Assembly: GCA_965237775.1 (NCBI GenBank)
Contig: OZ250155.1
Span: 17,084-81,083, forward strand
Source of the DNA: Dehalococcoidia bacterium
Lineage (GTDB): Bacteria; Chloroflexota; Dehalococcoidia; Lucifugimonadales; UBA3495
Direction: 5' to 3'
DNA length: 64,000 nucleotides
Positions 8,645 through 63,165 of this stretch are shown here, one piece after another; the stretch's first letter is position 1; each line of letters starts with the position of its first letter. The position numbers were made by a program, and so were the translations under genes. The notes below the pieces were generated by a model. It did not search any database. It saw nothing but the letters and a program-made list of their open reading frames with translations, and was not told the origin of the DNA.

Positions 8645-9071
8645 AGGGAACCCCCTTGCCGGCGTTGGGACAGGGACCACCGCCACAGCGATCCTGCCCT
8701 TGCATGAACCTTCAAAGGGGCAAAGATGCCCCTGGCCAAGAGCTCGGCCTGGTCCATGCTCTGAGAAAGGGGTCCAAGATCGCTGTAGCGGGCGGAATTA
8801 TACTAGCAATGAGCCAAGGAGGCCCGCACTTAATGCATCAGCATAGACCCCAATCCACCGAATAACTGAGTGTGGCAGTGGGTTGGAGAGGCGAACTGGA
8901 CCAAGTTAATTTCTAGAGAATTCGTGCAGAGTCTAGTGATAGTCCCGTAGCTTCTGCATATGGGCCCAACATCGGTCCCCACGAACGCTTCCTAATCGTT
9001 GGACTCCCACCGGATCATTAATCTAGCTGGGTCAACCTCGGGCAAATGCAAGTCTACGCCGGCGTATCTGG

Positions 9072-9720
9072 CTACTCGGCGTCTCGGTGCTGAAGCCAGG
9101 GATAGCGTTGGTCGATGTATTGCCACCAAGTGGCAAGCTCCGGATGGGTGTCAATGGGGAAATTACCAAATAAGGCTTCAGTGGACGTACTGATAAATCG
9201 GTCAGGTAGTCTCACCAGACTTTTCCAGACCTCGATACTGGAGTCCCCCAGTTGCTGCAACCCTGGCGAAGTAACCCGATGGAAGTCGCGATTCTTGGCA
9301 GGGGCCACGTGTAACACTTTTACAAGATCAGTTTCAGATTCGCGCGCCGCCTCCATTTCTTGGGCGAGCAATTGTTGTCTCAGAAACTGGTAGAAGGGCT
9401 CATAGAACAAGTCACCGAAGTCTGTAATGTAGTTCTTGTCCAAAAGGCAGCCTGGGCTATGGTACAAGTCCCGGTAGATGTCCATCCTATTGGTTCCGCT
9501 CGGGGCAATTCCCTTCCAAGAGGGACTATATGACTCAGTGTATTTCCACTCAATCAATATTATCTGGCGGGTTCCGTCCACCAGACGGAACATAACAGCG
9601 GCGTCGGCACTCGTGAAATTGGCTCCCCTCGTGCGGCGTCCGCTCCGAGAAACCTTCTCTCCGAGATAGTTTTCGAGGCCAATCCATTCGAACGATACGA
9701 GTTGGCCTTCAACTTCCATC
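9072..9720 (-). pseudogene. 3' part of a PD-(D/E)xK nuclease-like gene split by IS66
   Basis: The part contains SADAAVMFRLVDGTRQIILIEWKYTE, which has a D...ExK motif. It joins in frame to 11153..11513 once the IS and one copy of the 8-bp duplication are removed (EPME|VEGQLVSFEW). Confidence 0.7.
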
Positions 9721-11152
9721 GTAACTGTTCAGAGTTGAGGGGATGGATTAGTTAAAACTTGCTTGGGAAGTTCGGTGCGTCGGGTCGTCGGTTATGTTAA
9801 ATCAGGAGGATGGAGAACAAGGTAGACCTGAGGACGGCCAGCCGGGAGGCGCTGTTGGCGGTGATTGCGCGGCAGCAGGCGGTCATCGACGAGTTGCAGC
9901 GGCGGATAGCGGCGTTGGAAGGGGGTCTCAAGGGCAAAGGGCGGCCCGGAATGCCGGGCAACAAACCGGGTGCAAAGTCAGAGCCGGCCGAGAAGAAGGA
10001 GCCAAGAAAGCCCCGGCCCCACGGCTTTAGCCGTCGGCGCACGGTGGCGGCTCACCAGGTGGAACATGTCTTGGACTCCTGTCCGGAGTGTGGCACCGGG
10101 TTGGTTGGGGGTTGGCCGCAGCGGACTCGGGAAGTCATCGATATCCCAGTGGCTCCGGTGGAGGTCACGGAGCACGTTTTCGTGACCCGGGTCTGCCCAG
10201 TATGTGAACGGCGCCGGACCCCCAAGACGGACTTGGGCGGTGGGGTAATCGGTCGGGGACGGTTGGGAGCCAACTTGGTCTCATTGATCGCTGGCCTGCG
10301 GGAAGAGGGCCGGTTGCCCCTTCGGACCATCCAATGGTATCTGGAGACCGTCCACCAGTTGCGCTTGAGCGTTGGGGGAATCACCCAGGTCCTCCACGGC
10401 GTGGCCCGGCAAGCCCAACCGGCGGTGGCCGAGGTGCTGGAACTAGTCCGGACCAGCCAGGTGGTGCACGCCGACGAGACCGGCTGGCGCCAGGAGGGGG
10501 CCAATGGCTATGTCTGGACCTTCTCCACTCCCACTGAGCGGTACTTCCTGCGCCGAGGCCGGAATAAGGAGGTGGTGGACGAGGCGCTGGGGGAGTCCTT
10601 CAGCGGGGTGTTGGTCAGCGATTTCTACGCTGCCTATAACCACTACCCTGGCCTGAAGCAGCGGTGTTGGGCTCATCTGCTCCGGGACATCCATGACCTG
10701 AAGGCCCTCTACCCAGCAGACGCCAAGCTGGCCGGATGGGCGGCGGCAGTGCATGACCTCTACGCCCAGGCCAAGCGGTTCTCCCATCCTCAGGCAAGGA
10801 AACGCCGTCAGGCCCAACTGGAGTTGGAGCGGAAATTGTTGGCCTGCTGCCGACCCTTCCTTGATGACCCAGGGGCAGTCCAGGCCAAGCTCTGCCGGCG
10901 CATCCAGCGCTTCATCAAGGAGTTGTTCGTATTCGTAGCCGAACCGGCCGTCCCCTCGGAGAACAACGCCGCCGAGAGGAGCCTTCGTCACCTGGTGACC
11001 AGCCGCAAGATCAGCGGCGGCACCCGCTCAACCCAGGGCACCAACACCAAGATGGCTCTCGCTTCCCTCTTCGGTACCTGGCGCGCCCGAGGATTGAATC
11101 CCCTCACCGCATGCCGCCAGTTGCTCACTTCCCCTCAACTCTGAACACTTAC
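9721..11152 (+). mobile_element. IS66-family insertion sequence (single-ORF, ISBst12-like), 1432 bp
   Basis: The 23-bp terminal inverted repeats are GTAACTGTTCAGAGTTGAGGGGA (9721-9743) and tcccctcaactctgaacacttac (11130-11152), matching at 22 of 23 positions. They are flanked by an 8-bp direct repeat CTTCCATC at 9713-9720 and 11153-11160. Confidence 0.9.
9810..11144 (+). CDS. IS66-family transposase
   Basis: The 444-aa ORF has an N-terminal coiled coil, a zinc finger (CPECGTGL...CPVCERR), a DDE core (VVHADETGWRQEG) and the C-terminal motif NNAAERSLRHLVTSRKISGGTRS. Confidence 0.9.
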   Translation: MENKVDLRTASREALLAVIARQQAVIDELQRRIAALEGGLKGKGRPGMPGNKPGAKSEPAEKKEPRKPRPHGFSRRRTVAAHQVEHVLDSCPECGTGLVGGWPQRTREVIDIPVAPVEVTEHVFVTRVCPVCERRRTPKTDLGGGVIGRGRLGANLVSLIAGLREEGRLPLRTIQWYLETVHQLRLSVGGITQVLHGVARQAQPAVAEVLELVRTSQVVHADETGWRQEGANGYVWTFSTPTERYFLRRGRNKEVVDEALGESFSGVLVSDFYAAYNHYPGLKQRCWAHLLRDIHDLKALYPADAKLAGWAAAVHDLYAQAKRFSHPQARKRRQAQLELERKLLACCRPFLDDPGAVQAKLCRRIQRFIKELFVFVAEPAVPSENNAAERSLRHLVTSRKISGGTRSTQGTNTKMALASLFGTWRARGLNPLTACRQLLTSPQL

Positions 11153-11513
11153 CTTCCATCGGCTCAATCGACTGGATGTCAGGAAAGAACGGACGTAGCA
11201 ATGTACAAAGAGCTTCTGGTTTATCTGCGAATGGGAATAGGAAGTTGACGCATTGTACCTGTGAACTGCAAAGATGATTGCTCGGCTTGGCGGCTATTCC
11301 GTCGTGCCATTTGATTTTATTCTGCTCGAAATAGACTAACGCCTCAGCACGAATTTCGCTGAATAAGTTTTCCTCGGCACAGTCAACGGGTAAGCAGAAT
11401 GGGCGGAACTTGCCTCGGTATAGTCCTTCCGCCCTCGCGGCTTCTGCGAAGTAATCCGAAGCTTCCCTAAACAGGGATTGATGTCGTTTTTCTTGCTCTA
11501 AGTATCTTCCCAT
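11153..11513 (-). pseudogene. 5' part of the PD-(D/E)xK nuclease-like gene split by IS66
   Basis: The first 120 codons of ORF 11028..11513 (MGRYLEQEKRH...HLCSSQVQCVNFLFPFADKPE...IQSIEPME) belong to the native gene. The remainder of that ORF reads into the IS66 terminus. Confidence 0.7.
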
Positions 11514-12036
11514 TCCTTCTGCAGCCTCCTCGAAATAGCTCCTGCCTCAATCTCTGTATCAAGCTCAAAAGGAGTTTTGCCGTTCAATCCGCTGGTTCTG
11601 CCAATGCAGCATTCTTGCTGGGGCTGGGTTCTCCAAGGCGATGGTGTCTTTCTCCATTATGACATGTCCGCCAGGACTCAACCCTATCCACTCCATTCTC
11701 CAACCACAGAAATCAGTTCTTGTTCAGGCATTCCTGGAGAAACCTGCCGGCGAAAACCTCGGTGAAGGCGTTGATCCTGGGGGTCCCATGCCGACTGAAG
11801 TCCAGCTCCACGAAATGCTCAAGCCTACCTGGGCAAGCGGCTGACCGGGTTTATTCCCTATACTTGAAAAGGGAGCCGGATTCGTTGGCTGTATGGACCG
11901 GCTAGCTTTTTCCAGCAACCTCAGTTTCAGAGTTGAAGCCTCTCAAAAAAGAACCTTGACACCGCTCCAGGCAAAACTCAGAATCGCAAGGCATGAGTTA
12001 TCGCCTCGCCAATGGGGATATAGCCGATCTCCCAGT

Positions 12037-20833: not shown

Positions 20834-22689
20834 CCTAGAAATGCGGATGAAAAGCCTTGGTTGAGAAGAGGGCTTTAGGCAGAAAGGCCGGCGTCAGCAA
20901 CGCCAGCGGCCAAATCAGACCGAGCCGGATTGCACCAAATGTTGCTGTAGCACTGTCGGCGCCGGCCCAGGCGTCACGGTAGCCGATGGCAGCGCCACCA
21001 ATATCGCCTGTCAAACCGGTTTTGCCCGCCAGCAGGGTCAGGTTGGCCACCGTGGCTGCCAGGTACAGCTGGAACCGGGTTTTGGTCCGACCGAAGTAGC
21101 GGGCCTGGCGAATCCCCAGCTGCACCAGCCGGGCCAGCCGGTGCTCCACCACCACCCGGCGTTGACAATACCCGGCAAAGGCTTCGCTCTGCTGCAGGGC
21201 CCGGGCCTGCTGCAACAAAGCCTCCTGCGGGTGCAGTTGGACCGTTCGCCCCAATCCCGATGACCCGGCCACGCATTGAGAGCGCAGCGGGCAGGCTCCG
21301 CACACCGCCGCATCGAACCGGAAGGCTTGCAGCCGGTGAGTCCGTCCCGTGGAACCGGTCCGCTTCCCCGCCGGCAGCAGCTTCCGGGTGACCTGACCCG
21401 CCGGACAGGTGCAGGTTCCCGCCGCCAGGTCAATCCGGAAGTCATCCTTCGGGAAGTGTTTCCGGTTCGGACGGCCCGGCACCCGGGCAATCAGGGTCCG
21501 TCCCGCGTCGGCGAAGGCCTGCCTGGTATCGCCGTCGCCATAAGCGGCATCGCCCAGCGCCTCCTCCACCGGCACACCGGTATTGGCCTCGCTCCGTTCC
21601 ACCAGTTCCAAGGCCCCCAGGTTGTCCGGAGCGTTGCCGGGCAATACTTCCACAGCAGTAATGAGCTGGGTATCGGTGTCCACCACAATCGCCGCCTTGT
21701 GCCCGTCGAAGCGACGGCTGCTGCTCTTGTGGCCGTGGCGCATCTCCGGGTCATGCACCGACACCATCCGGTCCTTGCTCACCCCGTCCTTGAGACCAAT
21801 ACCGTCGCCGGTGCGCTCCACATCCTGGAGCAGCAACTGCCCCAGCAACTCCGCCGCCGCGACGATGCCCTGCCGCTCAGGGCTGCCCTCCGGCAGAGCC
21901 TCCTGCGCCTGCCGCCCTGCTTCCAACAGACGGTCGGCGTCAGCCACAATCGTGGCCAGCAACCCCGCCCGTGCCCCCTTGTCGGACCAGTCGATGGCCG
22001 ACTCTCCCTTGATGCTGGATGCAAGGTACCGCCCGTACCCCTGGGCCTCGGCCCATCCTTTGACATTGGACCTCTCCACGGCTGCCAGCGCCCGCAGCAG
22101 CTTCACAATCCCGTCCGCCAGCAGGTTGAAGGTGTCCCTCACGGCGCCCCGCCCCAGGATGTTCGTGGTGTCCAGCGCCACCCGCATGCCGCGCTTTTTT
22201 AGGTAGCCCGACTCCCGGGCCAGCCGCAGGCTGGACTCGAACACCGCCCGCACCTTGTCGTGGAGAATCAACTGGGCGCGGAACACCTGGAGCGTGCTCT
22301 TGGCGAAGGGCCTGTCCTCCACCTCAATTCCCAACGCCACTTTCCAGCGGATGTCGAAGTCGGCTCTGGCCTTGGCCTCGGCGTCGCTCACCTTGTCGTG
22401 GGTCTGCAGCAGCAGCGCCGTGGCCAGCAGGCTGGGCGGCACGCTGTCCCGGCCGTTGTCGGCGCAGTAGAACTCGGCGAAGTCGGAGTCCCGGAATAGT
22501 TGGCCTCTCAACGATGCCAACAGGCCGTAGAAAGTGTCCTTACCCACGTGGTCCAGATACAGCCGGTCCGCCTCCCAGAAGCCCCTCTGATCCGATCGCT
22601 CTCCCAGCATTCCCTTGCTCCGCTATCTTTGATACCCCGGAGTATAACCCCTGGCATCAAAATGGACAGTTTCCGGCCAGACTTCTAGG
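20834..22689 (-). mobile_element. IS1182/IS5-superfamily insertion sequence, copy A, 1856 bp
   Basis: The ends are CCTAGAAGTCTGG... and ...CCGCATTTCTAGG (an inverted repeat matching at 10 of 13 positions). The element appears identical to the copies at 23433-25288 and 60085-61940. Confidence 0.9.
20835..22610 (-). CDS. IS1182/IS5-like DDE transposase (591 aa)
   Basis: The N-terminal InsH/DUF772-like region reads GRDSVPPSLLATALLLQTHDKVSDAEAKARADFDIRWKVALG. The DDE region contains FDGHKAAIVVD and LGDAAYGDGD. The C-terminus reads RRVVVEHRLARLVQLGIRQARYFGRTKTRFQLYLAATVANL. Confidence 0.9.
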   Translation of the reverse strand: MLGERSDQRGFWEADRLYLDHVGKDTFYGLLASLRGQLFRDSDFAEFYCADNGRDSVPPSLLATALLLQTHDKVSDAEAKARADFDIRWKVALGIEVEDRPFAKSTLQVFRAQLILHDKVRAVFESSLRLARESGYLKKRGMRVALDTTNILGRGAVRDTFNLLADGIVKLLRALAAVERSNVKGWAEAQGYGRYLASSIKGESAIDWSDKGARAGLLATIVADADRLLEAGRQAQEALPEGSPERQGIVAAAELLGQLLLQDVERTGDGIGLKDGVSKDRMVSVHDPEMRHGHKSSSRRFDGHKAAIVVDTDTQLITAVEVLPGNAPDNLGALELVERSEANTGVPVEEALGDAAYGDGDTRQAFADAGRTLIARVPGRPNRKHFPKDDFRIDLAAGTCTCPAGQVTRKLLPAGKRTGSTGRTHRLQAFRFDAAVCGACPLRSQCVAGSSGLGRTVQLHPQEALLQQARALQQSEAFAGYCQRRVVVEHRLARLVQLGIRQARYFGRTKTRFQLYLAATVANLTLLAGKTGLTGDIGGAAIGYRDAWAGADSATATFGAIRLGLIWPLALLTPAFLPKALFSTKAFHPHF

Positions 22690-23432: not shown

Positions 23433-25288
23433 CCTAGAAGTCTGGCCGGAAACTGTCCATTTTGATGCCAGGGGTTATACTCCGGGGTATCAAAGATAGC
23501 GGAGCAAGGGAATGCTGGGAGAGCGATCGGATCAGAGGGGCTTCTGGGAGGCGGACCGGCTGTATCTGGACCACGTGGGTAAGGACACTTTCTACGGCCT
23601 GTTGGCATCGTTGAGAGGCCAACTATTCCGGGACTCCGACTTCGCCGAGTTCTACTGCGCCGACAACGGCCGGGACAGCGTGCCGCCCAGCCTGCTGGCC
23701 ACGGCGCTGCTGCTGCAGACCCACGACAAGGTGAGCGACGCCGAGGCCAAGGCCAGAGCCGACTTCGACATCCGCTGGAAAGTGGCGTTGGGAATTGAGG
23801 TGGAGGACAGGCCCTTCGCCAAGAGCACGCTCCAGGTGTTCCGCGCCCAGTTGATTCTCCACGACAAGGTGCGGGCGGTGTTCGAGTCCAGCCTGCGGCT
23901 GGCCCGGGAGTCGGGCTACCTAAAAAAGCGCGGCATGCGGGTGGCGCTGGACACCACGAACATCCTGGGGCGGGGCGCCGTGAGGGACACCTTCAACCTG
24001 CTGGCGGACGGGATTGTGAAGCTGCTGCGGGCGCTGGCAGCCGTGGAGAGGTCCAATGTCAAAGGATGGGCCGAGGCCCAGGGGTACGGGCGGTACCTTG
24101 CATCCAGCATCAAGGGAGAGTCGGCCATCGACTGGTCCGACAAGGGGGCACGGGCGGGGTTGCTGGCCACGATTGTGGCTGACGCCGACCGTCTGTTGGA
24201 AGCAGGGCGGCAGGCGCAGGAGGCTCTGCCGGAGGGCAGCCCTGAGCGGCAGGGCATCGTCGCGGCGGCGGAGTTGCTGGGGCAGTTGCTGCTCCAGGAT
24301 GTGGAGCGCACCGGCGACGGTATTGGTCTCAAGGACGGGGTGAGCAAGGACCGGATGGTGTCGGTGCATGACCCGGAGATGCGCCACGGCCACAAGAGCA
24401 GCAGCCGTCGCTTCGACGGGCACAAGGCGGCGATTGTGGTGGACACCGATACCCAGCTCATTACTGCTGTGGAAGTATTGCCCGGCAACGCTCCGGACAA
24501 CCTGGGGGCCTTGGAACTGGTGGAACGGAGCGAGGCCAATACCGGTGTGCCGGTGGAGGAGGCGCTGGGCGATGCCGCTTATGGCGACGGCGATACCAGG
24601 CAGGCCTTCGCCGACGCGGGACGGACCCTGATTGCCCGGGTGCCGGGCCGTCCGAACCGGAAACACTTCCCGAAGGATGACTTCCGGATTGACCTGGCGG
24701 CGGGAACCTGCACCTGTCCGGCGGGTCAGGTCACCCGGAAGCTGCTGCCGGCGGGGAAGCGGACCGGTTCCACGGGACGGACTCACCGGCTGCAAGCCTT
24801 CCGGTTCGATGCGGCGGTGTGCGGAGCCTGCCCGCTGCGCTCTCAATGCGTGGCCGGGTCATCGGGATTGGGGCGAACGGTCCAACTGCACCCGCAGGAG
24901 GCTTTGTTGCAGCAGGCCCGGGCCCTGCAGCAGAGCGAAGCCTTTGCCGGGTATTGTCAACGCCGGGTGGTGGTGGAGCACCGGCTGGCCCGGCTGGTGC
25001 AGCTGGGGATTCGCCAGGCCCGCTACTTCGGTCGGACCAAAACCCGGTTCCAGCTGTACCTGGCAGCCACGGTGGCCAACCTGACCCTGCTGGCGGGCAA
25101 AACCGGTTTGACAGGCGATATTGGTGGCGCTGCCATCGGCTACCGTGACGCCTGGGCCGGCGCCGACAGTGCTACAGCAACATTTGGTGCAATCCGGCTC
25201 GGTCTGATTTGGCCGCTGGCGTTGCTGACGCCGGCCTTTCTGCCTAAAGCCCTCTTCTCAACCAAGGCTTTTCATCCGCATTTCTAGG
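23433..25288 (+). mobile_element. IS1182/IS5-superfamily insertion sequence, copy B, 1856 bp
   Basis: It has the same ends and the same internal ORF set as copy A, in the opposite orientation. Confidence 0.9.
23512..25287 (+). CDS. IS1182/IS5-like DDE transposase (591 aa)
   Basis: Its translation is identical to those of 20835..22610 and 60164..61939. Confidence 0.9.
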   Translation: MLGERSDQRGFWEADRLYLDHVGKDTFYGLLASLRGQLFRDSDFAEFYCADNGRDSVPPSLLATALLLQTHDKVSDAEAKARADFDIRWKVALGIEVEDRPFAKSTLQVFRAQLILHDKVRAVFESSLRLARESGYLKKRGMRVALDTTNILGRGAVRDTFNLLADGIVKLLRALAAVERSNVKGWAEAQGYGRYLASSIKGESAIDWSDKGARAGLLATIVADADRLLEAGRQAQEALPEGSPERQGIVAAAELLGQLLLQDVERTGDGIGLKDGVSKDRMVSVHDPEMRHGHKSSSRRFDGHKAAIVVDTDTQLITAVEVLPGNAPDNLGALELVERSEANTGVPVEEALGDAAYGDGDTRQAFADAGRTLIARVPGRPNRKHFPKDDFRIDLAAGTCTCPAGQVTRKLLPAGKRTGSTGRTHRLQAFRFDAAVCGACPLRSQCVAGSSGLGRTVQLHPQEALLQQARALQQSEAFAGYCQRRVVVEHRLARLVQLGIRQARYFGRTKTRFQLYLAATVANLTLLAGKTGLTGDIGGAAIGYRDAWAGADSATATFGAIRLGLIWPLALLTPAFLPKALFSTKAFHPHF

Positions 25289-32414: not shown

Positions 32415-33654
32415 ATGATGGGTGGATTGAAGAATGGGTCGATCTTAGATTGTTTCGCGGGGTTGGAAGACCCACGAATTGAGCGTAGCAAGCGGCATAA
32501 GCTGCTGGACACCATAGCGATTGCCATCTGCGGAGCGAACTCCTGGGTCCACGTGGAGCTATTCGGCTGGAGCAAGGAGGAGTGGTTAAAGAGCTTCTTG
32601 GAACTGCCCAACGGAATCCCATCCCATGACACTTTCGGGGAGGTCTTCTCGCGGATAAACCCGGACCTGTTCCAAAGCTTTTTAATGGCATGGACCCAAG
32701 AGATAGCCCAACTGGCCCTGGGAGAAGTGGTGGCCATCGACGGGAAGACGGTGCGCCGCTCCCACGATGGATTCCGGCGCAAGGGGGCAATCCACCTGCT
32801 AAGCGCCTGGGCGTCGGCCAACAGCATGACTTTGGGACAGGTGAAGGTGGATGAGGAGTCCAACGAAATCACCTCCATTCCCAGGTTGCTGGAACTATTG
32901 ACCCTACATGGCTGTATCGTGACCATCGACGCCATGGGCTGTCAAAAGGAGATTGCCCAACAGATCGTCGACGCCGGGGCGGACTACGTGCTGGCGGTGA
33001 AGCAGAACCAGGGCCAGTTGTTTGAAGACGTACGTGACCTCTTCCAGGGTGCGGAAGAGTTTGGCTTTGAAGGAGTACCCCATGATTTCGCCCGGACTGT
33101 AGAGAAGGGCCACAGGCGCATCGAATCTCGAGAATGTTGGGTGGTCGCCGACCCGGGCTGTCTAGTATTACAACGACGGTTCAAGGCGGGATGTCGCGGG
33201 ATGCACGAAGGGCGGCGCGCCGCCCGCCGTGAAGACAGGATGGAGCCGCCACCCTAAAGCCGTCGTTGAAGTACTAGAGTACCTGGAGAACGGGAAGCAA
33301 TGGGCCGGGCTTGAGGCGGTGGTGAAAGTAACGGCCCGGCGGGAGACGGACCGGGGCGTGAGCATCCAGTCCCGTTACTACATCAGCAGCCTGAGGGCTC
33401 CCGCTGCCCGGATGCTGCAGGCCATTCGCCGCCACTGGGGCGTCGAGAATTCTCTGCATTGGACCTTGGACGTAACCTACCGAGAGGACCAATGCCGGGT
33501 GCGCAGAGACCATGCTCCCCAGAACATGGCGGCCCTGCGCAACATCTCCCATAACCTGCTCAAGCCCGAGTCCAGCCTCAAAACCGGTATCCAAGGCAAA
33601 CGGCTCCAAGCCGGCTGGCGTGAGCACTACCTGATCAAAGTCCTCTCCTCCTAA
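32415..33654 (+). pseudogene. ISAs1-family transposase interrupted by a 108-bp MITE
   Basis: The N-terminal part reads FAGLEDPRIERSKRHKLLDTIAIAICGANSWVHVELFG...IDAMGCQKEIAQQIV. The C-terminal part reads RYYISSLRAPAARMLQAIRRHWGVENSLHWTLDVTYREDQCR. Removing 33166-33277 restores ...ADPGCLEYLENGKQWAG in frame. Confidence 0.85.
33166..33273. mobile_element. 108-bp MITE related to the IS701-family element at 1493-2944
   Basis: Its ends, tattacaacgacgg and ccgtcgttgaagta, form an inverted repeat matching at 12 of 14 positions. A CTAG direct repeat flanks it at 33162-33165 and 33274-33277. The last 59 bp or so match the right end of the IS at 2886-2944 at about 55 of 59 positions. Confidence 0.85.
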
Positions 33655-34070: not shown

Positions 34071-35285
34071 GTGAACATGGGGGAAATGGCAGTGGCCGCA
34101 GGGTTGACCGACAGGCGAGCAAGGACGATTAAGAAACCTGGGGAGTACTCCGACGGCAGCGGCTTGTATCTCCGGATCGACACCAAAGGGGGTAAGCGGT
34201 GGGTCCAGCGGATTAAAGTCAAGAACGGGCCCTTGCGTCACCTCGGCTTGGGGGCGTTTCCGGTGATCACGCTCGCGGAGGCCCGAGAGACTGCCTTGGC
34301 CAACCGGAAGATGGCCCGCCTCGGCATCGACCCGTTGGAGACTCAGAAGCAGGCTCGCGAGGAACAGGAGCGGGCCGAGTCCGTTGTCAACTTTTCCGAG
34401 GCCGCCGAACGGGTGATAGCGTTGCGGCGGCCAAGCTGGAAGAACACCAAACATGCCGCGCAATGGGCATCTACTCTTCGGACCTATGCGTTTCCGGCAA
34501 TCGGGGATCTGCCGGTCGGAGAGGTTACGAACGCGGATGTCCTGAAGCTCTTGGAGCCGATCTGGACTGCCAAGCCCGAGACGGCCCGGCGCGTGCGCCA
34601 GCGCACAAAGACAGTCTTGGACTGGGCGATTGCCCAGGGTTATCGCAACGACAACCCGGCAGGAGAGTCACTGAACGCAGTGCTCCCCAGGTTGCCGCGT
34701 ACGAAATCACATCACCCGGCCCTCCACTACTCCCAGGTGGCGGGCGCCATAAGCCGGGTCTACGAATCTGATGCCGAGCTTGTCACCAAGTTGTCGTTCG
34801 AGTTCTTGGTGCTGACGGTCACGCGGTCCAACAATGTCCGGGGAGCTGAATGGAGGGAAGTGGATATGGACTCCCGGACCTGGACCATACCTGCGGCGCG
34901 GATGAAGGGGACGGAGATGACGGCCGGGGAACACCGGGTCCCGCTGTCCGATAGGGCTATGGGAGTGCTGGCAGAAGCGCAGGCCCTCTGGTCCGATTCG
35001 GAGTGGATTTTCCCGGGTCCCCGTTCTGGACGCCCATTGTCGGACTCGACCCATAGCACCTTGCTACGAGACTTGGGCGTACCGGCGGTTCCCCACGGGT
35101 TTCGCTCTAGCTTTAAGGACTGGTGCATCGAACAGACGGATACACCCTGGGCGGTGGGTGAAGCGGCGCTTGCCCACACTCTTGGCAACTCCACCGAAGT
35201 GGCCTACGCAAGGAGCGACCTGTTCGACCGGCGGCGCCAACTGATGGACGAGTGGGCGGCCTACTTGGTGGCCCGCCGCGCCTAG
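34071..35285 (+). CDS. int: Tyrosine integrase with an N-terminal Arm-type (DUF4102-like) DNA-binding domain
   Basis: The N-terminus reads LTDRRARTIKKPGEYSDGSGLYLRIDTKGGKRWVQRI. The catalytic region contains TRSNNVRGAEWREV, HGFRSSFKDW and LAHTLGNSTEVAYARSD (R...HxxR...Y). The true start may be the ATG at 34077 or 34086. A direct repeat of TGTACAC at 34052-34058 and 34064-34070 abuts the start. Confidence 0.9.
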   Translation: MNMGEMAVAAGLTDRRARTIKKPGEYSDGSGLYLRIDTKGGKRWVQRIKVKNGPLRHLGLGAFPVITLAEARETALANRKMARLGIDPLETQKQAREEQERAESVVNFSEAAERVIALRRPSWKNTKHAAQWASTLRTYAFPAIGDLPVGEVTNADVLKLLEPIWTAKPETARRVRQRTKTVLDWAIAQGYRNDNPAGESLNAVLPRLPRTKSHHPALHYSQVAGAISRVYESDAELVTKLSFEFLVLTVTRSNNVRGAEWREVDMDSRTWTIPAARMKGTEMTAGEHRVPLSDRAMGVLAEAQALWSDSEWIFPGPRSGRPLSDSTHSTLLRDLGVPAVPHGFRSSFKDWCIEQTDTPWAVGEAALAHTLGNSTEVAYARSDLFDRRRQLMDEWAAYLVARRA

Positions 35286-36256: not shown

Positions 36257-36350
36257 CGCTCACCTCTATCTAAATTTTACAATCCTGGGTTGGAAAGGTC
36301 GATGGGAGGCGGACCGTTCTAATCAATCCCAAGGGAGAAGGTTAACGGCT

Positions 36351-36392
36351 GCGATGGAGGCGTTCCGGGGGTCCAAGCCGTTTGGGGGGTGA
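36351..36392. repeat. Copy 2 of the 42-bp direct repeat
   Basis: See copy 1 at 35328-35369. Here the homologous reading frame (AMEAFRGSKPFGG*) is shifted and truncated relative to copy 1 (AIEAFRGGQVVWGLD). Confidence 0.7.
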
Positions 36393-36623
36393 GACAATTT
36401 AGGGTGAAAGAGTCTCAGGCGGTTTCCCAAAGTCGACTGCTACCAGTGCCGTAGCCCATCTTTGTCTCTCTATTGGGTAACGAGCCTGTGATTCTTTTGT
36501 GCCAAATAGCAGACGAGCAGAAGATTGGTGTCATCCATGGGGGTACGAGTTCTGATTCACGTGAACGACCATATGCTTGGGTTGGATCGTTTGACTGTTG
36601 GTCTCCTCGTGAATCGAGGTCGC

Positions 36624-37115
36624 TTATGGCATAAGAAGGGGTTCGATCGTCCTAGGATGCTCAACCGTCAACCCGACTAACGCACCAGCACGTAACAGCC
36701 GATCGTCGTAAGTGTGAACCGCTTCCAGTTCGAGACCCCGTTGGGTCAGCCATTCTGCCGTAGCCAGATGGGTGGCGTCATAAGGCCTAATACTTCTACC
36801 ACCCGCCATGGCGCGTCTCATCAGCGATCTGGCCATATTTCCGATTCCGTCGTGAAACTCGACGACCGTAATCCCCGGTTCACTCCATAGGCCATCAATC
36901 AGTTCTTCAATCTCAGAGCTAAGGGTTTGCGACTCCCTTTCGGAAGCGGCAAAAGCCACCTCAACTTTAGCAAGGGAAGACGTGTATATCCTAGTCCGAC
37001 CTCTTGACATAGATTGAAGGATGGCTTCCAAAACAGGCAGCCGCTCCGGGTTTTCCTCGACATACGAGAGAAAGACGCAGGAGTCCCAATACAGGAGCCG
37101 ATTTTCCCTAGGCAT
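36624..37115 (-). CDS. PIN-domain ribonuclease (VapC-like)
   Basis: The acidic residues follow the PIN pattern: LLYWDSCVF, LAKVEVA, RPYDATHLATA and HTYDDRLL. The gene overlaps the upstream gene by 8 nt. Confidence 0.8.
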   Translation of the reverse strand: MPRENRLLYWDSCVFLSYVEENPERLPVLEAILQSMSRGRTRIYTSSLAKVEVAFAASERESQTLSSEIEELIDGLWSEPGITVVEFHDGIGNMARSLMRRAMAGGRSIRPYDATHLATAEWLTQRGLELEAVHTYDDRLLRAGALVGLTVEHPRTIEPLLMP

Positions 37116-37845
37116 CGCGCAAACGCCGGATCACGTCCTCGGGCAATGTGTCTCCAGGTTGCCGGTGAATGGCTCCCCTAGCCTTTCGGTACGACCCAGG
37201 AGCAACGTCCTCAAGGACCTCCACGTCTAAAAGGTGTCTGACAGCGACAGGGCGAAACGAATGGGGGTCCCGACTAACGGTTCCACTTACTCTTGCCCTT
37301 CGGTCCCATGCTTCGAACATCAGGTCTTCCTGACCCGGCTGAAGGTAGCAAGGGACCGCTTGGTCGTGGATAGAGTCGAATATTACGAAACGAAGACTCC
37401 CTCTGTTGCTCAGGGTTTGAACACGCCCTGTCACGGCGCCGATGCTAACCGAGAGTCGAAGACGTGCTGGGGTTACCCCGTTGGACGAGACGGTGTAATC
37501 ACGCTCCGCAACTTGAAGCATAACGTATTCGATTGAACCCGCTAACCTCCTGATCTCTTGGGCAGACCTATTGACATCCGGGCTAAAGTCCAAGGGGCGT
37601 TGCTGTTCGAGGGCTTCACCAACGGCGCCATAGTTGGCGACCACGGCGTCCACATCGCCTATGTCTTCGGCTTCGCCTCTGAGCGTGGCCGTCGCGCTTC
37701 CGACTTGAAGGTCTTGGACAACCCACTTCACCTGCTTGTCACTACTAAGGTCACGGACCAAATTGCGAAACAACCGAATCCCTCGGAGGAATTCGGAGAC
37801 TTCTAATTCACCACCTAGCACGATTGTGACAGTGTCGTCGGCCAT
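37108..37845 (-). CDS. 245-aa protein of unknown family, translationally coupled upstream partner of the PIN gene
   Basis: The overlap ATGCCTAG spans 37108-37115. The protein has an OB-like segment (GAVTGRVQTLSNRGSLRFVIFDS...ARVSGTVSRD) and a C-terminal tail (TLPEDVIRRLRDA). I recognised no HTH, RHH or AbrB motif. Confidence 0.6.
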   Translation of the reverse strand: MADDTVTIVLGGELEVSEFLRGIRLFRNLVRDLSSDKQVKWVVQDLQVGSATATLRGEAEDIGDVDAVVANYGAVGEALEQQRPLDFSPDVNRSAQEIRRLAGSIEYVMLQVAERDYTVSSNGVTPARLRLSVSIGAVTGRVQTLSNRGSLRFVIFDSIHDQAVPCYLQPGQEDLMFEAWDRRARVSGTVSRDPHSFRPVAVRHLLDVEVLEDVAPGSYRKARGAIHRQPGDTLPEDVIRRLRDA

Positions 37846-38048
37846 TATGCTAACCTGAAATCAGCAGCTTCCAGCAGCTTGTTGGACTATAAGAGCGCTC
37901 GGAATGCCTGTCAACGCAGACACATCTAGGTAGATTTCATTATCCCATCACACCGAGGGCGACATAATGCAGCTCGACCTTCGGTGCGACAAAGTGGAGT
38001 TTGTCAGGGAGACCGTTGGTTTCGCTAGCCGAATGGGAATCACCCCAT

Positions 38049-38357
38049 CTACCGGTTGTTCCCCGCCTTCTTGTTCCCGGGCGACTTCCCCTTCTTAGGC
38101 GGCTTCGTGACTAGTGGCTCCGTCTGCACCGGCGGCTCCCAGTCATCGGTCTGGGCTTCAACTGATTCCTCCTCTTCCTCTCCACCGGGCAGCAGGTCCT
38201 GGAACTCATCGCTACAGAAGTCGCAGTCGGCGGAGCTCAAAAGGCGGTCCTGGGGGTCCTCGGGGCTGTCGCAGGGGATTTCGCCGCCGCAGGAGATGCA
38301 CTGGTGAGCGTGGGTGGTTTCGCTCCGGTACAGCAAGGCTCTCTGAACTGGTTCCAT
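38049..38357 (-). CDS. Small zinc-ribbon protein with an acidic middle and a lysine-rich tail
   Basis: From the ATG at 38357 it reads MEPVQRALLYRSETTHAHQCISCGG...CDFCSD (two CxxC pairs), then GGEEEEES and KPPKKGKSPGNKKAGNNR. Confidence 0.5.
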   Translation of the reverse strand: MEPVQRALLYRSETTHAHQCISCGGEIPCDSPEDPQDRLLSSADCDFCSDEFQDLLPGGEEEEESVEAQTDDWEPPVQTEPLVTKPPKKGKSPGNKKAGNNR

Positions 38358-38532
38358 TGACCAACTCTGTTTAACCCTAGTGTATTCGCGGAGGTAGGGA
38401 AACGAAATCGGCAAGTGTCAGTGGGGGAGCCTAAAACGGAAAGGCCCAGGCCGAAACCCGGGCGAAATACCGTGCCGGTGCGACCACACCGGCGACCCTC
38501 ACCGACAAATGTCTCACTTCACAGTTTAAGGC

Positions 38533-38669: not shown

Positions 38670-39254
38670 ATGGAAGAGCATCTTATAACTTTGCCAAGGG
38701 CCCAGAACCTTCTTGCCTCGAAAATCCCCTCCTTTGTGAGTGCTTTGGGGATGACCATGAAGACTTGGACTGCTAGCCCTCCTGTGTTCCACCAACTTTT
38801 GGATGAGTCTGCCAGGGCGACAGTCATGCACCGATTTTGGTATGGTTTCGTAGAACAAAATCTGCGGCAGGACTCAGATGTCGAGTTTAAGTCCTCCCTC
38901 GGTCAGCGATTTTTGGTGGTCTCCGGAAAGGTTGTGGTGAGGTTTAAACTCGTTGACCGGTATTATCTGTCCAAGAATTATCCGACCAAACGATCGTTGG
39001 CATGGAAGCGCCAGGACCACCTGCGGGGTATTCCCCCGGCGAGTAGGGTGGAGTTCGGTTACATTCCTGATATAACCGGCACGGTCCTTGTTCGGGCTTG
39101 TATGCTCTTGCGTTTGGGCAACGATATCCTCTGGGTCTGGCAGGTGTTGGGTGAGAGAGACAATTCTTTCTTCTCGGCCACCCCTGTGGAGGGCACTGAT
39201 CTGTTTGACCGACAAGTTTTCGCTTACGACGATTATTCGGCGTCCTTGGTGTAA
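38670..39254 (+). CDS. Hypothetical 194-aa protein, first gene of a two-gene unit with the XRE-ImmA fusion
   Basis: The ORF has a good RBS. Its stop lies 2 nt before the next start. I recognised no motif. Confidence 0.55.
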   Translation: MEEHLITLPRAQNLLASKIPSFVSALGMTMKTWTASPPVFHQLLDESARATVMHRFWYGFVEQNLRQDSDVEFKSSLGQRFLVVSGKVVVRFKLVDRYYLSKNYPTKRSLAWKRQDHLRGIPPASRVEFGYIPDITGTVLVRACMLLRLGNDILWVWQVLGERDNSFFSATPVEGTDLFDRQVFAYDDYSASLV

Positions 39255-39256
39255 AC

Positions 39257-40363
39257 GTGATGACGAGCCGTAATGCTGTGAATCCTGAAATGATTCGGTT
39301 GGCCCGATTGTCTCGCGGCAAGTCCCAAGCTCAACTTGCCTCGTTGATTGGTGTTCCTTCATCTGAGGTATCCCGGTTCGAATCCGGGATTAGGGCCGTT
39401 ACCGATTCCTTGATGTTGAGGATTGTGGGCGCTTTGGGATATCCCATCAGTTTCTTTACGAGATATCCTCGTTTGGAAGGGCCTGGAGCGGACGTGACAT
39501 TCCACAGGAAACGAAAGAGCGTTAGCAATACCAGGTTGAATCAAATTTACGCTTTGGCGGACATCCGCCGTCTGGAGTTGGAGAAACTCTTAGAATTTTG
39601 CCCTCAAGAGGTGACAGTTCCTGATTATCCAGTTGATCTATTTGATGACGATCCTACGAAGATTGCCCGCTCTGTCCGAGCGGCAATGAGGGTTCCGCCT
39701 GGTCCTATCTTCAATGTGACCAAGATTCTTGAGCAAGTTGGCTGTGTGGTTGTGACTCACGATTTTGGCACACGTCAGGTTGATGGTTTCAGCCGGCGGC
39801 CCTTGATGGGTCCGCCCTTTTTTCACATGAATGCTGGGCTTCCGCCGGACCGATGGCGTTGGACTCTGGCTCACGAGTTGGGTCATGTGGTGATGCACCC
39901 GGACCCTTTGGTGTCTCCAAAGGTAGTTGAGCAGCAGGCAGACCAGTTTGCCGGGGAATTCTTAGCGCCGGCGGCAGAGTTGCAGCCCGTGCTGTTTAAC
40001 CTGAGTTTCCAACGGTTGGCTGGTTTGAAACTTGAGTGGAAGATTTCCATGCAGGCGTTGGTAATGCGGGCATACCAGTTGGGGACAATCACTGACCGTC
40101 AACGTGTCAGTATGTTCTCTCGGTTATCGAAAGCAGGATACAGAGTTCGGGAACCTTCGACTTTGGACCCTCCCCTGGAGCCACCGGAGCGCCTTTTTCA
40201 ATTGTCCAAGTTGTATATGTCGCGGCTTGGGTATAGCCGTTCGGAACTCATGGATTTCCTTGCTATCGGTGATCTGGACTTCCAAGTTTACTACCATGAT
40301 CCGAGGGATGTTCTCCCAGGGTTGGAAAGCGACGATGAGTGGTCTATTCCCGGAGTCGGCTAG
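39257..40363 (+). CDS. Fused XRE-family HTH and ImmA/IrrE-family (DUF955) zinc metallopeptidase
   Basis: The N-terminal HTH reads IRLARLSRGKSQAQLASLIGVPSSEVSRFESG. The HEXXH site reads RWTLAHELGHVVMH, followed by ADQFAGEFLAP. Confidence 0.85.
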   Translation: MMTSRNAVNPEMIRLARLSRGKSQAQLASLIGVPSSEVSRFESGIRAVTDSLMLRIVGALGYPISFFTRYPRLEGPGADVTFHRKRKSVSNTRLNQIYALADIRRLELEKLLEFCPQEVTVPDYPVDLFDDDPTKIARSVRAAMRVPPGPIFNVTKILEQVGCVVVTHDFGTRQVDGFSRRPLMGPPFFHMNAGLPPDRWRWTLAHELGHVVMHPDPLVSPKVVEQQADQFAGEFLAPAAELQPVLFNLSFQRLAGLKLEWKISMQALVMRAYQLGTITDRQRVSMFSRLSKAGYRVREPSTLDPPLEPPERLFQLSKLYMSRLGYSRSELMDFLAIGDLDFQVYYHDPRDVLPGLESDDEWSIPGVG

Positions 40364-60084: not shown

Positions 60085-61940
60085 CCTAGAAGTCTGGCCG
60101 GAAACTGTCCATTTTGATGCCAGGGGTTATACTCCGGGGTATCAAAGATAGCGGAGCAAGGGAATGCTGGGAGAGCGATCGGATCAGAGGGGCTTCTGGG
60201 AGGCGGACCGGCTGTATCTGGACCACGTGGGTAAGGACACTTTCTACGGCCTGTTGGCATCGTTGAGAGGCCAACTATTCCGGGACTCCGACTTCGCCGA
60301 GTTCTACTGCGCCGACAACGGCCGGGACAGCGTGCCGCCCAGCCTGCTGGCCACGGCGCTGCTGCTGCAGACCCACGACAAGGTGAGCGACGCCGAGGCC
60401 AAGGCCAGAGCCGACTTCGACATCCGCTGGAAAGTGGCGTTGGGAATTGAGGTGGAGGACAGGCCCTTCGCCAAGAGCACGCTCCAGGTGTTCCGCGCCC
60501 AGTTGATTCTCCACGACAAGGTGCGGGCGGTGTTCGAGTCCAGCCTGCGGCTGGCCCGGGAGTCGGGCTACCTAAAAAAGCGCGGCATGCGGGTGGCGCT
60601 GGACACCACGAACATCCTGGGGCGGGGCGCCGTGAGGGACACCTTCAACCTGCTGGCGGACGGGATTGTGAAGCTGCTGCGGGCGCTGGCAGCCGTGGAG
60701 AGGTCCAATGTCAAAGGATGGGCCGAGGCCCAGGGGTACGGGCGGTACCTTGCATCCAGCATCAAGGGAGAGTCGGCCATCGACTGGTCCGACAAGGGGG
60801 CACGGGCGGGGTTGCTGGCCACGATTGTGGCTGACGCCGACCGTCTGTTGGAAGCAGGGCGGCAGGCGCAGGAGGCTCTGCCGGAGGGCAGCCCTGAGCG
60901 GCAGGGCATCGTCGCGGCGGCGGAGTTGCTGGGGCAGTTGCTGCTCCAGGATGTGGAGCGCACCGGCGACGGTATTGGTCTCAAGGACGGGGTGAGCAAG
61001 GACCGGATGGTGTCGGTGCATGACCCGGAGATGCGCCACGGCCACAAGAGCAGCAGCCGTCGCTTCGACGGGCACAAGGCGGCGATTGTGGTGGACACCG
61101 ATACCCAGCTCATTACTGCTGTGGAAGTATTGCCCGGCAACGCTCCGGACAACCTGGGGGCCTTGGAACTGGTGGAACGGAGCGAGGCCAATACCGGTGT
61201 GCCGGTGGAGGAGGCGCTGGGCGATGCCGCTTATGGCGACGGCGATACCAGGCAGGCCTTCGCCGACGCGGGACGGACCCTGATTGCCCGGGTGCCGGGC
61301 CGTCCGAACCGGAAACACTTCCCGAAGGATGACTTCCGGATTGACCTGGCGGCGGGAACCTGCACCTGTCCGGCGGGTCAGGTCACCCGGAAGCTGCTGC
61401 CGGCGGGGAAGCGGACCGGTTCCACGGGACGGACTCACCGGCTGCAAGCCTTCCGGTTCGATGCGGCGGTGTGCGGAGCCTGCCCGCTGCGCTCTCAATG
61501 CGTGGCCGGGTCATCGGGATTGGGGCGAACGGTCCAACTGCACCCGCAGGAGGCTTTGTTGCAGCAGGCCCGGGCCCTGCAGCAGAGCGAAGCCTTTGCC
61601 GGGTATTGTCAACGCCGGGTGGTGGTGGAGCACCGGCTGGCCCGGCTGGTGCAGCTGGGGATTCGCCAGGCCCGCTACTTCGGTCGGACCAAAACCCGGT
61701 TCCAGCTGTACCTGGCAGCCACGGTGGCCAACCTGACCCTGCTGGCGGGCAAAACCGGTTTGACAGGCGATATTGGTGGCGCTGCCATCGGCTACCGTGA
61801 CGCCTGGGCCGGCGCCGACAGTGCTACAGCAACATTTGGTGCAATCCGGCTCGGTCTGATTTGGCCGCTGGCGTTGCTGACGCCGGCCTTTCTGCCTAAA
61901 GCCCTCTTCTCAACCAAGGCTTTTCATCCGCATTTCTAGG
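60085..61940 (+). mobile_element. IS1182/IS5-superfamily insertion sequence, copy C, 1856 bp
   Basis: It has the same ends and internal ORFs as copies A and B. It is inserted between the convergent genes 59677..60084 and 61936..63165. Confidence 0.9.
60164..61939 (+). CDS. IS1182/IS5-like DDE transposase (591 aa)
   Basis: Its translation is identical to those of the other two copies. Confidence 0.9.
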   Translation: MLGERSDQRGFWEADRLYLDHVGKDTFYGLLASLRGQLFRDSDFAEFYCADNGRDSVPPSLLATALLLQTHDKVSDAEAKARADFDIRWKVALGIEVEDRPFAKSTLQVFRAQLILHDKVRAVFESSLRLARESGYLKKRGMRVALDTTNILGRGAVRDTFNLLADGIVKLLRALAAVERSNVKGWAEAQGYGRYLASSIKGESAIDWSDKGARAGLLATIVADADRLLEAGRQAQEALPEGSPERQGIVAAAELLGQLLLQDVERTGDGIGLKDGVSKDRMVSVHDPEMRHGHKSSSRRFDGHKAAIVVDTDTQLITAVEVLPGNAPDNLGALELVERSEANTGVPVEEALGDAAYGDGDTRQAFADAGRTLIARVPGRPNRKHFPKDDFRIDLAAGTCTCPAGQVTRKLLPAGKRTGSTGRTHRLQAFRFDAAVCGACPLRSQCVAGSSGLGRTVQLHPQEALLQQARALQQSEAFAGYCQRRVVVEHRLARLVQLGIRQARYFGRTKTRFQLYLAATVANLTLLAGKTGLTGDIGGAAIGYRDAWAGADSATATFGAIRLGLIWPLALLTPAFLPKALFSTKAFHPHF

Positions 61941-63165
61941 AGTAACGGAATTCTTCGGAGTTCTGGATTCTTATGGCCCCCATCACGCCACGAGCACCCA
62001 CCGGGTCACGTTGAATCGTTTGATATTCAAGAGTCTGAACAAGCATGTCCCTACCCGAGACCTCGAAGACGGGTGTCGTCAGGTAACTGTTGAAGGTATA
62101 GACCTCGAACAGGTCAGTGCCCTGAGAGAGTTTGATTTCGATGTTCCGGGGCTTGGGATTACTGGTACCAGGGCTGTCCGCCCCCCAGAAATCTTTGTAC
62201 TGATCACGGGTCTTGAATTCGAGGGTCAGACTGGCCGTGAGTTCCAGACCTTGGGCTTCCAGCTTGACCGGAAACCTTGAACCCATCCGCATCCCGTCCT
62301 CGGCCTGCACGTTGTTGTTGAACGTGAACGATGCGGAACGGATGTAATTGATGATGTCCTTGTCGTCGGTGCCGGGGCTGGCGGTGTCGATCAGCCTGGC
62401 CGAGCTTACATGGAGCCCCGCAAACGGCACCGAGTCGAATGCGGACCCAGGGGGATTGAAGACGTCCTCGCTGGCGTCCTTCTGGGCGATGATGCTGGCC
62501 GTGAGGTCGGCCATCGTGTTGTAGGCGATGGACAGGGTAATCTGGCTTACGGCACAACCGTAGAACGCGTGAGTGTCGAAGTCCTTGCCAACCCGGACTG
62601 TCATGGAGTCCAAATCAGTGATGTCACCCCCAAAGTCCATGATGTGCAGGACTCCCGGAGACGCATCCAGTTTGGTCACCGTCGCGTCCTCAGCATGGGA
62701 ACGGGTCAAGCCGTCGGCGATGGTCAGTTCTCCGGTACCTACGGCAGTAACCTTATGGATTTCTGAGCCACCGAAATCGCCACCGACCTGAACCAGATCG
62801 TTCTCCGCGAAACCAGCCTCAGTGTCCACCGATAGTGTGGTTGAACCCGCAGCGTGATCGACGTCCAACTCGGTATCAGTGCTGGATTTATTGACTGATA
62901 GCTGCTGGTAGTTCAGCTCGGGGACGGCCGCCCGGAAGAAAGCGCCTGCCCGCCACGTATCAACTACCGTCTCGATGTCACCCTGCGGGACATAGCTGGT
63001 CGGCACAATGGTTCGCTGGCCCCTGCCACTGGCGCCTGAGTAGATCAAGAAGGGGTTGCTAGGCGAATCAAGGGAGACTCGGTTTGGATCAAAGTAATAT
63101 TTGGGGGCCGCGGAGGCCCCGTAGCTGGACTCGAACCCTATACTCAACGCGCGTCTGATTGCCAT
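61936..63165 (-). CDS. Phage major structural protein, most likely a tail tube-type protein with an inserted domain
   Basis: The 409-aa ORF opens MAIRRALSIGFESSYGASAAPKYYFDP...SGASGRGQRTIVPTSYVPQGDIETVVD and later reads SASFTFNNNVQAEDGMRMGSRFPVKLEAQGLELTASLTLEFK. This fits my recollection of tail-tube families. It follows adaptor and neck genes. Its stop codon lies in the CCTAGG at the IS junction. Confidence 0.45.
   Translation of the reverse strand: MAIRRALSIGFESSYGASAAPKYYFDPNRVSLDSPSNPFLIYSGASGRGQRTIVPTSYVPQGDIETVVDTWRAGAFFRAAVPELNYQQLSVNKSSTDTELDVDHAAGSTTLSVDTEAGFAENDLVQVGGDFGGSEIHKVTAVGTGELTIADGLTRSHAEDATVTKLDASPGVLHIMDFGGDITDLDSMTVRVGKDFDTHAFYGCAVSQITLSIAYNTMADLTASIIAQKDASEDVFNPPGSAFDSVPFAGLHVSSARLIDTASPGTDDKDIINYIRSASFTFNNNVQAEDGMRMGSRFPVKLEAQGLELTASLTLEFKTRDQYKDFWGADSPGTSNPKPRNIEIKLSQGTDLFEVYTFNSYLTTPVFEVSGRDMLVQTLEYQTIQRDPVGARGVMGAIRIQNSEEFRYS

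Follow-up and report, generated by a model that had tools for sequence, protein, structure and literature searches.

VapBC systems are the most numerous toxin-antitoxin modules, and the way in which their toxin is released is still debated. The usual VapB antitoxin is small (70-100 amino acids, aa) and carries an RHH, AbrB, Phd/YefM, or HTH DNA-binding domain. Here, we analyze a 64,000-nucleotide (nt) stretch of contig OZ250155.1 from a Dehalococcoidia bacterium (the window, taken at its full length), in which a gene for a VapC-type PIN nuclease is preceded by a gene for a partner of a different build. The 163-aa nuclease is called PIN throughout, and its 245-aa partner is called A. We suggest, with moderate confidence, that the two form a type II-like toxin-antitoxin module in which A neutralizes a VapC-type ribonuclease by direct binding, an OB-containing protein standing in place of the DNA-binding VapB.

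The A-PIN pair resembles VapBC, especially those systems that have a Phd/YefM-type VapB (Mycobacterium tuberculosis VapBC5, PDB 3dbo; VapB46, PDB 6jqy). PIN has the same catalytic acids and the same fold as VapC, the A gene lies upstream of the toxin gene and overlaps it, the loci are mobile and patchily distributed, and it is the toxin gene that decays preferentially. Furthermore, A ends in a short, conserved, Arg-containing tail. The differences lie mostly in the partner, which is 245 aa rather than 70-100 aa long and has a ferredoxin-like domain and an OB-like barrel instead of an RHH, AbrB, Phd, or HTH domain. PIN itself is about 30 aa longer than typical or solved VapCs and has no significant match among PDB sequences (none with phmmer; a profile search returned only 7by2, E = 0.68).

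Antitoxin exchange on PIN toxins has been described before. NetFlax reports a conserved PIN toxin fold neutralized by unrelated, sometimes large antitoxin domains (PanA, RHH_6, DUF2080, the ImmA-like D25, and others), often in phage-defense contexts (PMC10440598). The principle of partner swapping on a PIN toxin is the same here, and since that principle is already established, A-PIN is not a new category. It differs in that the NetFlax text searched describes no OB-fold or ferredoxin-like antitoxin (PMC10440598), and A is neither PanA (DUF4065) nor a member of any other Pfam family. Among the libraries and literature searched, we found no antitoxin that has an OB-containing module and lacks a DNA-binding domain.

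Judged by its sequence, its catalytic residues, and its predicted fold, the 163-aa protein is a VapC-type toxin. It matches Pfam PF01850 over residues 9-144 with 40.8 bits (cutoff, 23.6; E = 4e-10). A preliminary description of this locus had recognized a PIN nuclease from its conserved acidic residues, and the alignments bear this out. D11 (YWD), E52 (VEV), and D113 (DATHL) are invariant among 32 cognate PINs from other loci. D137 (TYD) is kept in most of these, a few distant ones having N, S, or E instead, and it is invariant among 36 closer relatives that were aligned as another set. The AlphaFold model of PIN has a mean predicted local distance difference test score (pLDDT) of 91.5 and a predicted template modeling (TM) score of 0.87. 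It finds 42 matches in the PDB at E <= 1e-3, mostly VapC toxins, the remainder being other PIN-domain proteins. The top matches are all VapC toxins of solved VapBC complexes (9h6a, 3tnd, 4chg, 3h87, and 6a7v), with a target-normalized TM score of 0.81 and a root mean square deviation (rmsd) of 2.8 Å for 9h6a_A, and a TM score of 0.81 for 3tnd_A. The VapCs matched include those of the F plasmid and Shigella (target-normalized TM score of 0.81), VapC21, VapC15, and VapC11 of M. tuberculosis, and others. PIN is acidic, with a family mean net charge of -8. We infer that it acts as a toxic ribonuclease.

A and PIN are inherited together. We scanned one genome per species (185,579 species genomes) for the A family and obtained 100 matching stretches and 80 genome loci on 80 different contigs. 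Nearly all of these loci belong to Dehalococcoidia or SAR202, and a few come from Anaerolineae, Thermomicrobiales, Actinomycetota, Binatia, Gemmatimonadota, and Acidobacteriota. PIN follows A in 74 of the 80. The pairing also holds when the search starts from the other side: in a scan of metagenomes with a PIN profile, an A gene lay upstream of every strong PIN match that had room upstream. Of 76 pairs, 53 overlap by 8 nt and 12 by 11 nt. Pairwise identities of A and of PIN are strongly correlated (r = 0.84), and none of 999 Mantel permutations gave a correlation as high. About 100 loci from several phyla share this gene order and overlap, and because these loci are independent, the arrangement is far beyond chance. 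The preliminary description had likened the two overlapping genes to an antitoxin-toxin pair; we find that A is indeed co-conserved with PIN, and the loss pattern described below adds support to the likeness.

The proposal that A and PIN are neighbors by chance, or that the 245-aa open reading frame (ORF) is no real gene, was considered separately and rejected; we give it next to no probability. Full-length homologues of A number in the hundreds, keep a constant length, and share invariant residues; the order of A and PIN and their overlap are retained across several phyla; and the structure of A is modeled with confidence.

Loss of the pair is one-sided. Both genes are intact and adjacent in 60 of the 80 loci (L071 and L081 were classed by hand in this count). 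A is intact and PIN is frameshifted, truncated, or absent in 14, and in the remaining six, A is broken and PIN is broken or absent as well. A broken A gene beside an intact PIN gene was found in none. With 738 nt against 492 nt for PIN, A offers mutations the larger target, so under neutral decay the probability that all 14 one-sided losses would fall on PIN is about 0.4^14. Such one-sidedness is to be expected where PIN is harmful, or not tolerated, when A is missing.

A belongs to a large family that none of the resources searched names. Pfam, NCBIfam, PADLOC, and PHROGs gave no match to A, nor did the PDB sequences, even with a profile as the query; the earlier view of a partner without a recognizable antitoxin domain is in line with this, and no named antitoxin family was matched. 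Neither A nor PIN matches the defense components of PADLOC-DB v2 at E <= 1. There are 299 close homologues of A, nearly all 245-247 aa long, and the family comprises 1616 representatives (50% identity clustering, E <= 1e-3), 463 of them with E <= 1e-30. Alignment of 36 diverse members shows 21 invariant columns. Relatives come mostly from Dehalococcoidia, and the family ranges over Chloroflexota, Alphaproteobacteria, and other phyla. Searching phage and plasmid collections with A by tblastn returned nothing, and the exact A protein has no record in the contig index. Every source labels the relatives of A “hypothetical” and offers no other name. With a family this large and still unnamed, annotation pipelines call the nuclease an orphan VapC and its partner hypothetical.

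The predicted structure of A has three parts. The AlphaFold model (mean pLDDT of 82) agrees with the preliminary description, which had proposed a multidomain partner with an OB-like barrel. Residues 5-119 are modeled as a b-a-b-b-a(-a)-b-b module (E5-11, H16-33, E40-47, E52-58, H62-80, H89-104, E107-111, and E116-119, where E is strand and H is helix). In Foldseek searches, this part gives weak matches to two kinds of structure, dimeric alpha+beta-barrel proteins and the ferredoxin-like and OB region of TiaS. The barrel (residues 132-210) has five strands, the third and fourth separated by a helix, and it carries most of the invariant residues of the family (G136, G140, Q143, L151, F153, C166, L168, W180, G188, and R192). 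Its matches in the PDB are PriB, the N-terminal domain of lysyl-tRNA synthetase, a cold-shock domain, and the OB domains of ExoVII and PolC; these are weak, domain-level matches, with probabilities of 0.9-0.99 and E values of only 0.01-0.07. The two domains differ in charge, with family mean net values of -5 for the N-terminal domain and +3.6 for the barrel. The C-terminal segment (residues 211-245) is modeled at lower confidence (pLDDT of 61-74), with a helix at 235-244. Within it, A222, G224, E236, and R243 are invariant.

TiaS, the tRNA-Ile2 agmatidine synthetase, uses ferredoxin-like and OB domains to contact tRNA. It is the best whole-chain PDB fold match of A (4rvz and 3amu; E = 3.4e-3), and the aligned part covers a ferredoxin-like domain followed by an OB domain. 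The match has a TM score of 0.21, an rmsd of about 15 Å, and 13% identity, and A has neither the kinase domain nor the zinc ribbon of TiaS. The resemblance is thus one of domain order only and gives no evidence of homology or of tRNA binding.

These features also bear on the main alternative, a different division of labor in which A would be a substrate-recognition or adaptor subunit that presents a specific RNA (e.g., a tRNA) to PIN, and the pair would serve constitutively in RNA processing or RNA surveillance, as an enzyme rather than a toxin-antitoxin pair. A folds well and is conserved as strongly as PIN (mean pairwise identity of 45% vs 48%), its mildly basic OB domain has Arg and aromatic residues that are invariant, and its best domain matches are nucleic-acid-binding OB folds, including the anticodon-binding domains of aminoacyl-tRNA synthetases and the TiaS region. 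The lack of a DNA-binding domain is consistent with such a role, and so is the occurrence of the 80 loci on 80 contigs, with no sign of multiple copies per genome. However, the fold matches to OB and ferredoxin-like proteins are weak (E >= 0.003), the family occupies only 100 stretches in the species genomes scanned, and its neighborhoods vary. Locations in prophages, phage contigs, and a plasmid argue against a housekeeping role. In addition, an obligate two-subunit enzyme should decay symmetrically, whereas PIN was lost beside an intact A 14 times and the reverse was never seen. Because the distribution is patchy and mobile and the decay is asymmetric, we rate a housekeeping role as unlikely.

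The model of A also resembles uncharacterized phage proteins. Against predicted viral structures (BFVD), it has four full-length matches, all to such proteins. The top three are A0A8S5T657, A0A8S5QA00 (“DUF6575 domain-containing protein”), and Q6NE06 of Leptospira phage LE1, with E values of 3e-8 to 2e-7 and a probability of 1.00, although sequence identity to A is only 8-10%. DUF6575 has been found in one experimentally selected Escherichia coli anti-phage system (PMC9519451). The structural match to the one BFVD protein of that name is the sole link between DUF6575 and A; at the sequence level, A and ten divergent partners searched against Pfam gave no match to DUF6575 at E <= 1.

A sister group extends the pairing beyond the A family. 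More distant PINs of about 170 aa are preceded by 275-300-aa proteins of the same build as A, which are missed by the A profile and are visibly colinear with A in alignment. A profile-profile comparison of A with this group gives E = 0.025 over 170 colinear columns, and intermediates between the two were detected directly (L118, L124-126, and L151). The sister group occurs in the cultured Alphaproteobacteria Citromicrobium, Aurantimonas, and Marinicauda. One pair is carried by the mobilizable plasmid pMOC1 of Methylobacterium oryzae (L168), where genes for a 288-aa and a 183-aa protein adjoin an IS1595 transposase. NCBI names this nuclease “type II toxin-antitoxin system VapC family toxin” and its partner “hypothetical protein”. 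The C-terminal motif of the A group (G-D-x-L-P-E-D-V-I-R-R-L-R-D-A) has a counterpart in the sister group (G-G-L-S-P-x-E-Y-L-x-x-L-R-E-G), and the general form of the latter, P-x-[ED]-h-h-x-x-[LF]-[RW]-[DE]-[GA], is similar to the A tail. The same scan recovered classical 133-aa VapCs, which have about 50% identity to residues 107-155 of PIN and pair with Phd/YefM-type VapBs of about 97 aa; one representative of these VapBs matches PDB 6jqy and 3dbo. Since the sister group is present in cultured Alphaproteobacteria (Citromicrobium, Aurantimonas, and the Methylobacterium plasmid), toxicity-rescue and phage-challenge tests are practical.

The cassette occurs in varied genomic contexts, several of them mobile. 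In the window, it sits between the integrase of the prophage and an HTH_3 + Peptidase_M78 regulator gene, and a homologue 97% identical to A holds the same place, next to the integrase at the end of a related prophage (L167). On an IMG/VR phage contig (L164, UViG_3300042876_001168), the pair is a moron insertion, flanked by the large terminase gene and the portal gene. Upstream of the terminase genes, this contig has two genes for N6_N4 DNA methylases. In 18 of the 80 genome loci, a type IIG restriction-modification gene (N6_Mtase/Eco57I-like, encoding about 1050-1170 aa) lies convergently just downstream of PIN. An N6_N4_Mtase+Mrr_cat gene is found in five further loci, and the other neighbors are varied metabolic genes. 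Such a distribution marks a small mobile cassette, somewhat prone to settle at defense loci, and not a housekeeping operon.

The restriction-modification genes could mean that A-PIN is an accessory of a larger defense island, forming a three-gene system with the adjacent type IIG enzyme. The two sets of genome loci with such genes, together with the methylases near the pair in the viral contig, point in this direction. Yet such a gene is missing from most genome loci and also from the window, the related prophage (L167), and L168 on the plasmid. Where present, it is encoded on the strand opposite to the pair, it remains in L021 and L026, where PIN is gone, and the 18 loci may share the ancestry of one island. 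We therefore consider a three-gene system highly improbable.

We favor a type II-like module, which would work as follows. The cassette would be self-contained and mobile, made up of two genes and here carried as prophage cargo. The 8-nt overlap, of the GATGCCTAG type, places the ATG of PIN 8 nt before the end of A, so that translation of PIN is putatively coupled to that of A. A would bind PIN directly and keep the nuclease inactive. The likely contact is the conserved, flexible stretch of 35 residues at the C terminus of A (PGSYRxARGA...LPEDVIRRLRDA), which would act like the tails of VapB antitoxins; residues 211-245 are accordingly the predicted PIN-binding, neutralizing segment. The ferredoxin-like and OB module would replace the DNA-binding domain of VapB and could bind nucleic acid or another ligand. 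Such binding could control when the nuclease is released. Direct binding, neutralization through the tail, the trigger, and a role in phage defense are all steps that we infer from the comparisons above. By eye, the tails of Phd-type VapBs (...LSDALAALRDEERW) look like that of A, a likeness that is visual and statistically unsupported.

Several observations weigh against this proposal. The conservation of A and its well-folded, conserved OB core suit a working subunit as well as they suit a disposable antitoxin. A hidden Markov model (HMM) built on the C-terminal 24 residues of A recovered no Phd-type VapB tail significantly from 3270 ORFs of PIN-containing loci. The best such tail (L160) ranked fifth with E = 1.0, so the resemblance is anecdotal, and we treat it only as a lead. 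The last two residues of the tail are partly constrained by the overlapping start codon of PIN. Mutual information between A and PIN with average product correction (77 pairs) did not single out the tail; the signal was dominated by phylogeny, an indel loop in PIN (residues 122-128), and the overlapping codons (A245-P2). Some of the “broken” PIN genes may be long-read assembly errors, although such errors should strike A at least as often as PIN. Finally, A has no DNA-binding domain and no conserved operator was found, which leaves classic type II autoregulation unsupported.

The region upstream of A in the window contains candidate regulatory elements. A promoter-like site lies about 40 nt upstream of the A start and is the sole such match in 36300-38500 (2.2 kb); shuffled sequence of this region gives a mean of 0.7 matches. 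A tandem repeat lies between its -10 box and the A start codon. This repeat was not seen in the leaders of 22 other related loci inspected, including L004 (71% identical), and reading it as an operator is speculative; it may also be fortuitous. It is followed by a weak 7-bp hairpin (three G-U pairs) that covers an AGG Shine-Dalgarno-like triplet and is not significant (z = -1.2).

About a third of family loci, not including the window, have a conserved sense-strand hairpin in the 45 nt before the A start. The hairpin (CATTTC-YGCRAG...CTYGCRGG-RG) abuts or overlaps the Shine-Dalgarno sequence and shows compensatory changes. RNAalifold gave no consensus on the raw MAFFT alignment of leaders. With the hairpin specified by hand, 77% of cells are paired, compared with 30-54% when the partners are slid. 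Many of its pairs are G-U, which argues for structure in RNA and against a palindrome in DNA. In 1.16 Mb, a covariance model seeded with 28 leaders has 33 matches, each of them at an A leader, with six outside the seed and none in the window. Rfam has no match for the leader or the window region. The hairpin may be a translational control element; taken with the missing DNA-binding domain of A, it hints at post-transcriptional control.

A more specific version of the module would make A a new class of sensor antitoxin. Nucleic acid bound by the ferredoxin-like and OB module would displace the tail, and the freed PIN would cause abortive infection or prophage-mediated phage exclusion. Candidate ligands would be phage single-stranded DNA or RNA, tRNA, or the mRNA leader of the cassette itself. 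Given that A lacks a DNA-binding domain, autoregulation of the cassette might take place at the level of RNA. It would then be a VapC system under post-transcriptional control by its own antitoxin, with a hairpin overlapping the ribosome-binding site in about one-third of loci. The mobile and defense-linked contexts fit the sensor and abortive-infection ideas of the preliminary description without demonstrating them, and we regard this version as tentative and rather unlikely.

The gene positions agree with the preliminary description, which had noted the 8-nt overlap of the two ORFs and placed the pair between the integrase and the prophage regulator. The regulator is ImmA/IrrE-like, and phage tail genes, including tape-measure and tail-tube genes, follow from 40.9 kb on. 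Directly upstream of the regulator gene, on the same strand, is a 194-aa ORF with only a weak PHROG match; these two genes may form a second two-gene regulatory or defense-like module beside the PIN cassette. The window also contains three copies of a 591-aa DDE transposase ORF (DDE_Tnp_1_6 / DUF772), of which copies 1 and 3 have 100% protein identity. Copy 3 sits among phage structural genes, adjoining the tail-tube gene, so the prophage may be disrupted. A DDE_Tnp_1 transposase in two overlapping ORFs (280 aa and 141 aa) lies immediately before the prophage integrase and may be a frameshifted insertion sequence at the prophage border.

Table 1. Positions of the A-PIN cassette, its parts, and associated features. 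Unless a locus or contig is named, positions are those of the window.
Feature	Position	Strand	Basis or remark
Gene A, 245-aa partner, putative antitoxin	37108..37845	minus	ORF, ATG start
PIN gene, 163-aa VapC-type nuclease, putative toxin	36624..37115	minus	ORF, ATG start
Overlap of A and PIN ORFs	37108-37115	minus	8 nt
A residues 1-120, acidic ferredoxin-like alpha/beta module with extra helices	37486..37845	minus	AlphaFold model, weak Foldseek matches
A residues 130-210, OB-like five-stranded barrel, mildly basic	37216..37458	minus	Model, conservation
A residues 211-245, linker with PGSYRxARGA, then tail LPEDVIRRLRDA	37111..37215	minus	Conservation, model
Promoter-like TTGACA-17 nt-TATAGT	37886..37914	minus	11/12 consensus positions; consensus match only
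9-nt tandem direct repeat, period 10	37862..37880	minus	AAGCTGCTG-G-AAGCTGCTG on coding strand; CAGCAGCTT x2 on plus strand
Tyrosine integrase of prophage	34071-35285	plus	
HTH_3 + Peptidase_M78 regulator	39257-40363	plus	ImmA/IrrE-like
194-aa ORF	38670-39254	plus	Weak PHROG match
DDE transposase, copy 1	20835-22610	minus	DDE_Tnp_1_6 / DUF772
DDE transposase, copy 2	23512-25287	plus	DDE_Tnp_1_6 / DUF772
DDE transposase, copy 3	60164-61939	plus	DDE_Tnp_1_6 / DUF772
Tail-tube gene	61936-63165		
Split DDE_Tnp_1 transposase	32415-33654	plus	Two overlapping ORFs
A-PIN pair on phage contig L164	8001-9231		UViG_3300042876_001168
Sister pair on plasmid pMOC1 (L168)	153420-154821		NZ_JX627580.1
Type IIG gene, loci including L012, L013, L021, L023, L026, L030, L035, L041, L043, L052, L068	~7200-11800	minus	N6_Mtase/Eco57I-like
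Leader hairpin, loci L011-L014, L016, L017, L020-L026, L028-L031, L033, L034, L038, L041, L042, L045	~5946-6003		
Leader hairpin, loci L047, L049, L050, L052, L056, L061, L064, L068, L079	~5946-6003		
Leader hairpin, locus L084	3205-3262		

If the proposed module is real, it would be a natural case in which neutralization of a toxin is coupled to the sensing of a ligand or nucleic acid, and not to transcriptional control. To our knowledge, almost nothing is known of the phage biology of Dehalococcoidia and SAR202. The A-PIN cassette would add a candidate defense or exclusion gene pair to the prophages of these bacteria.

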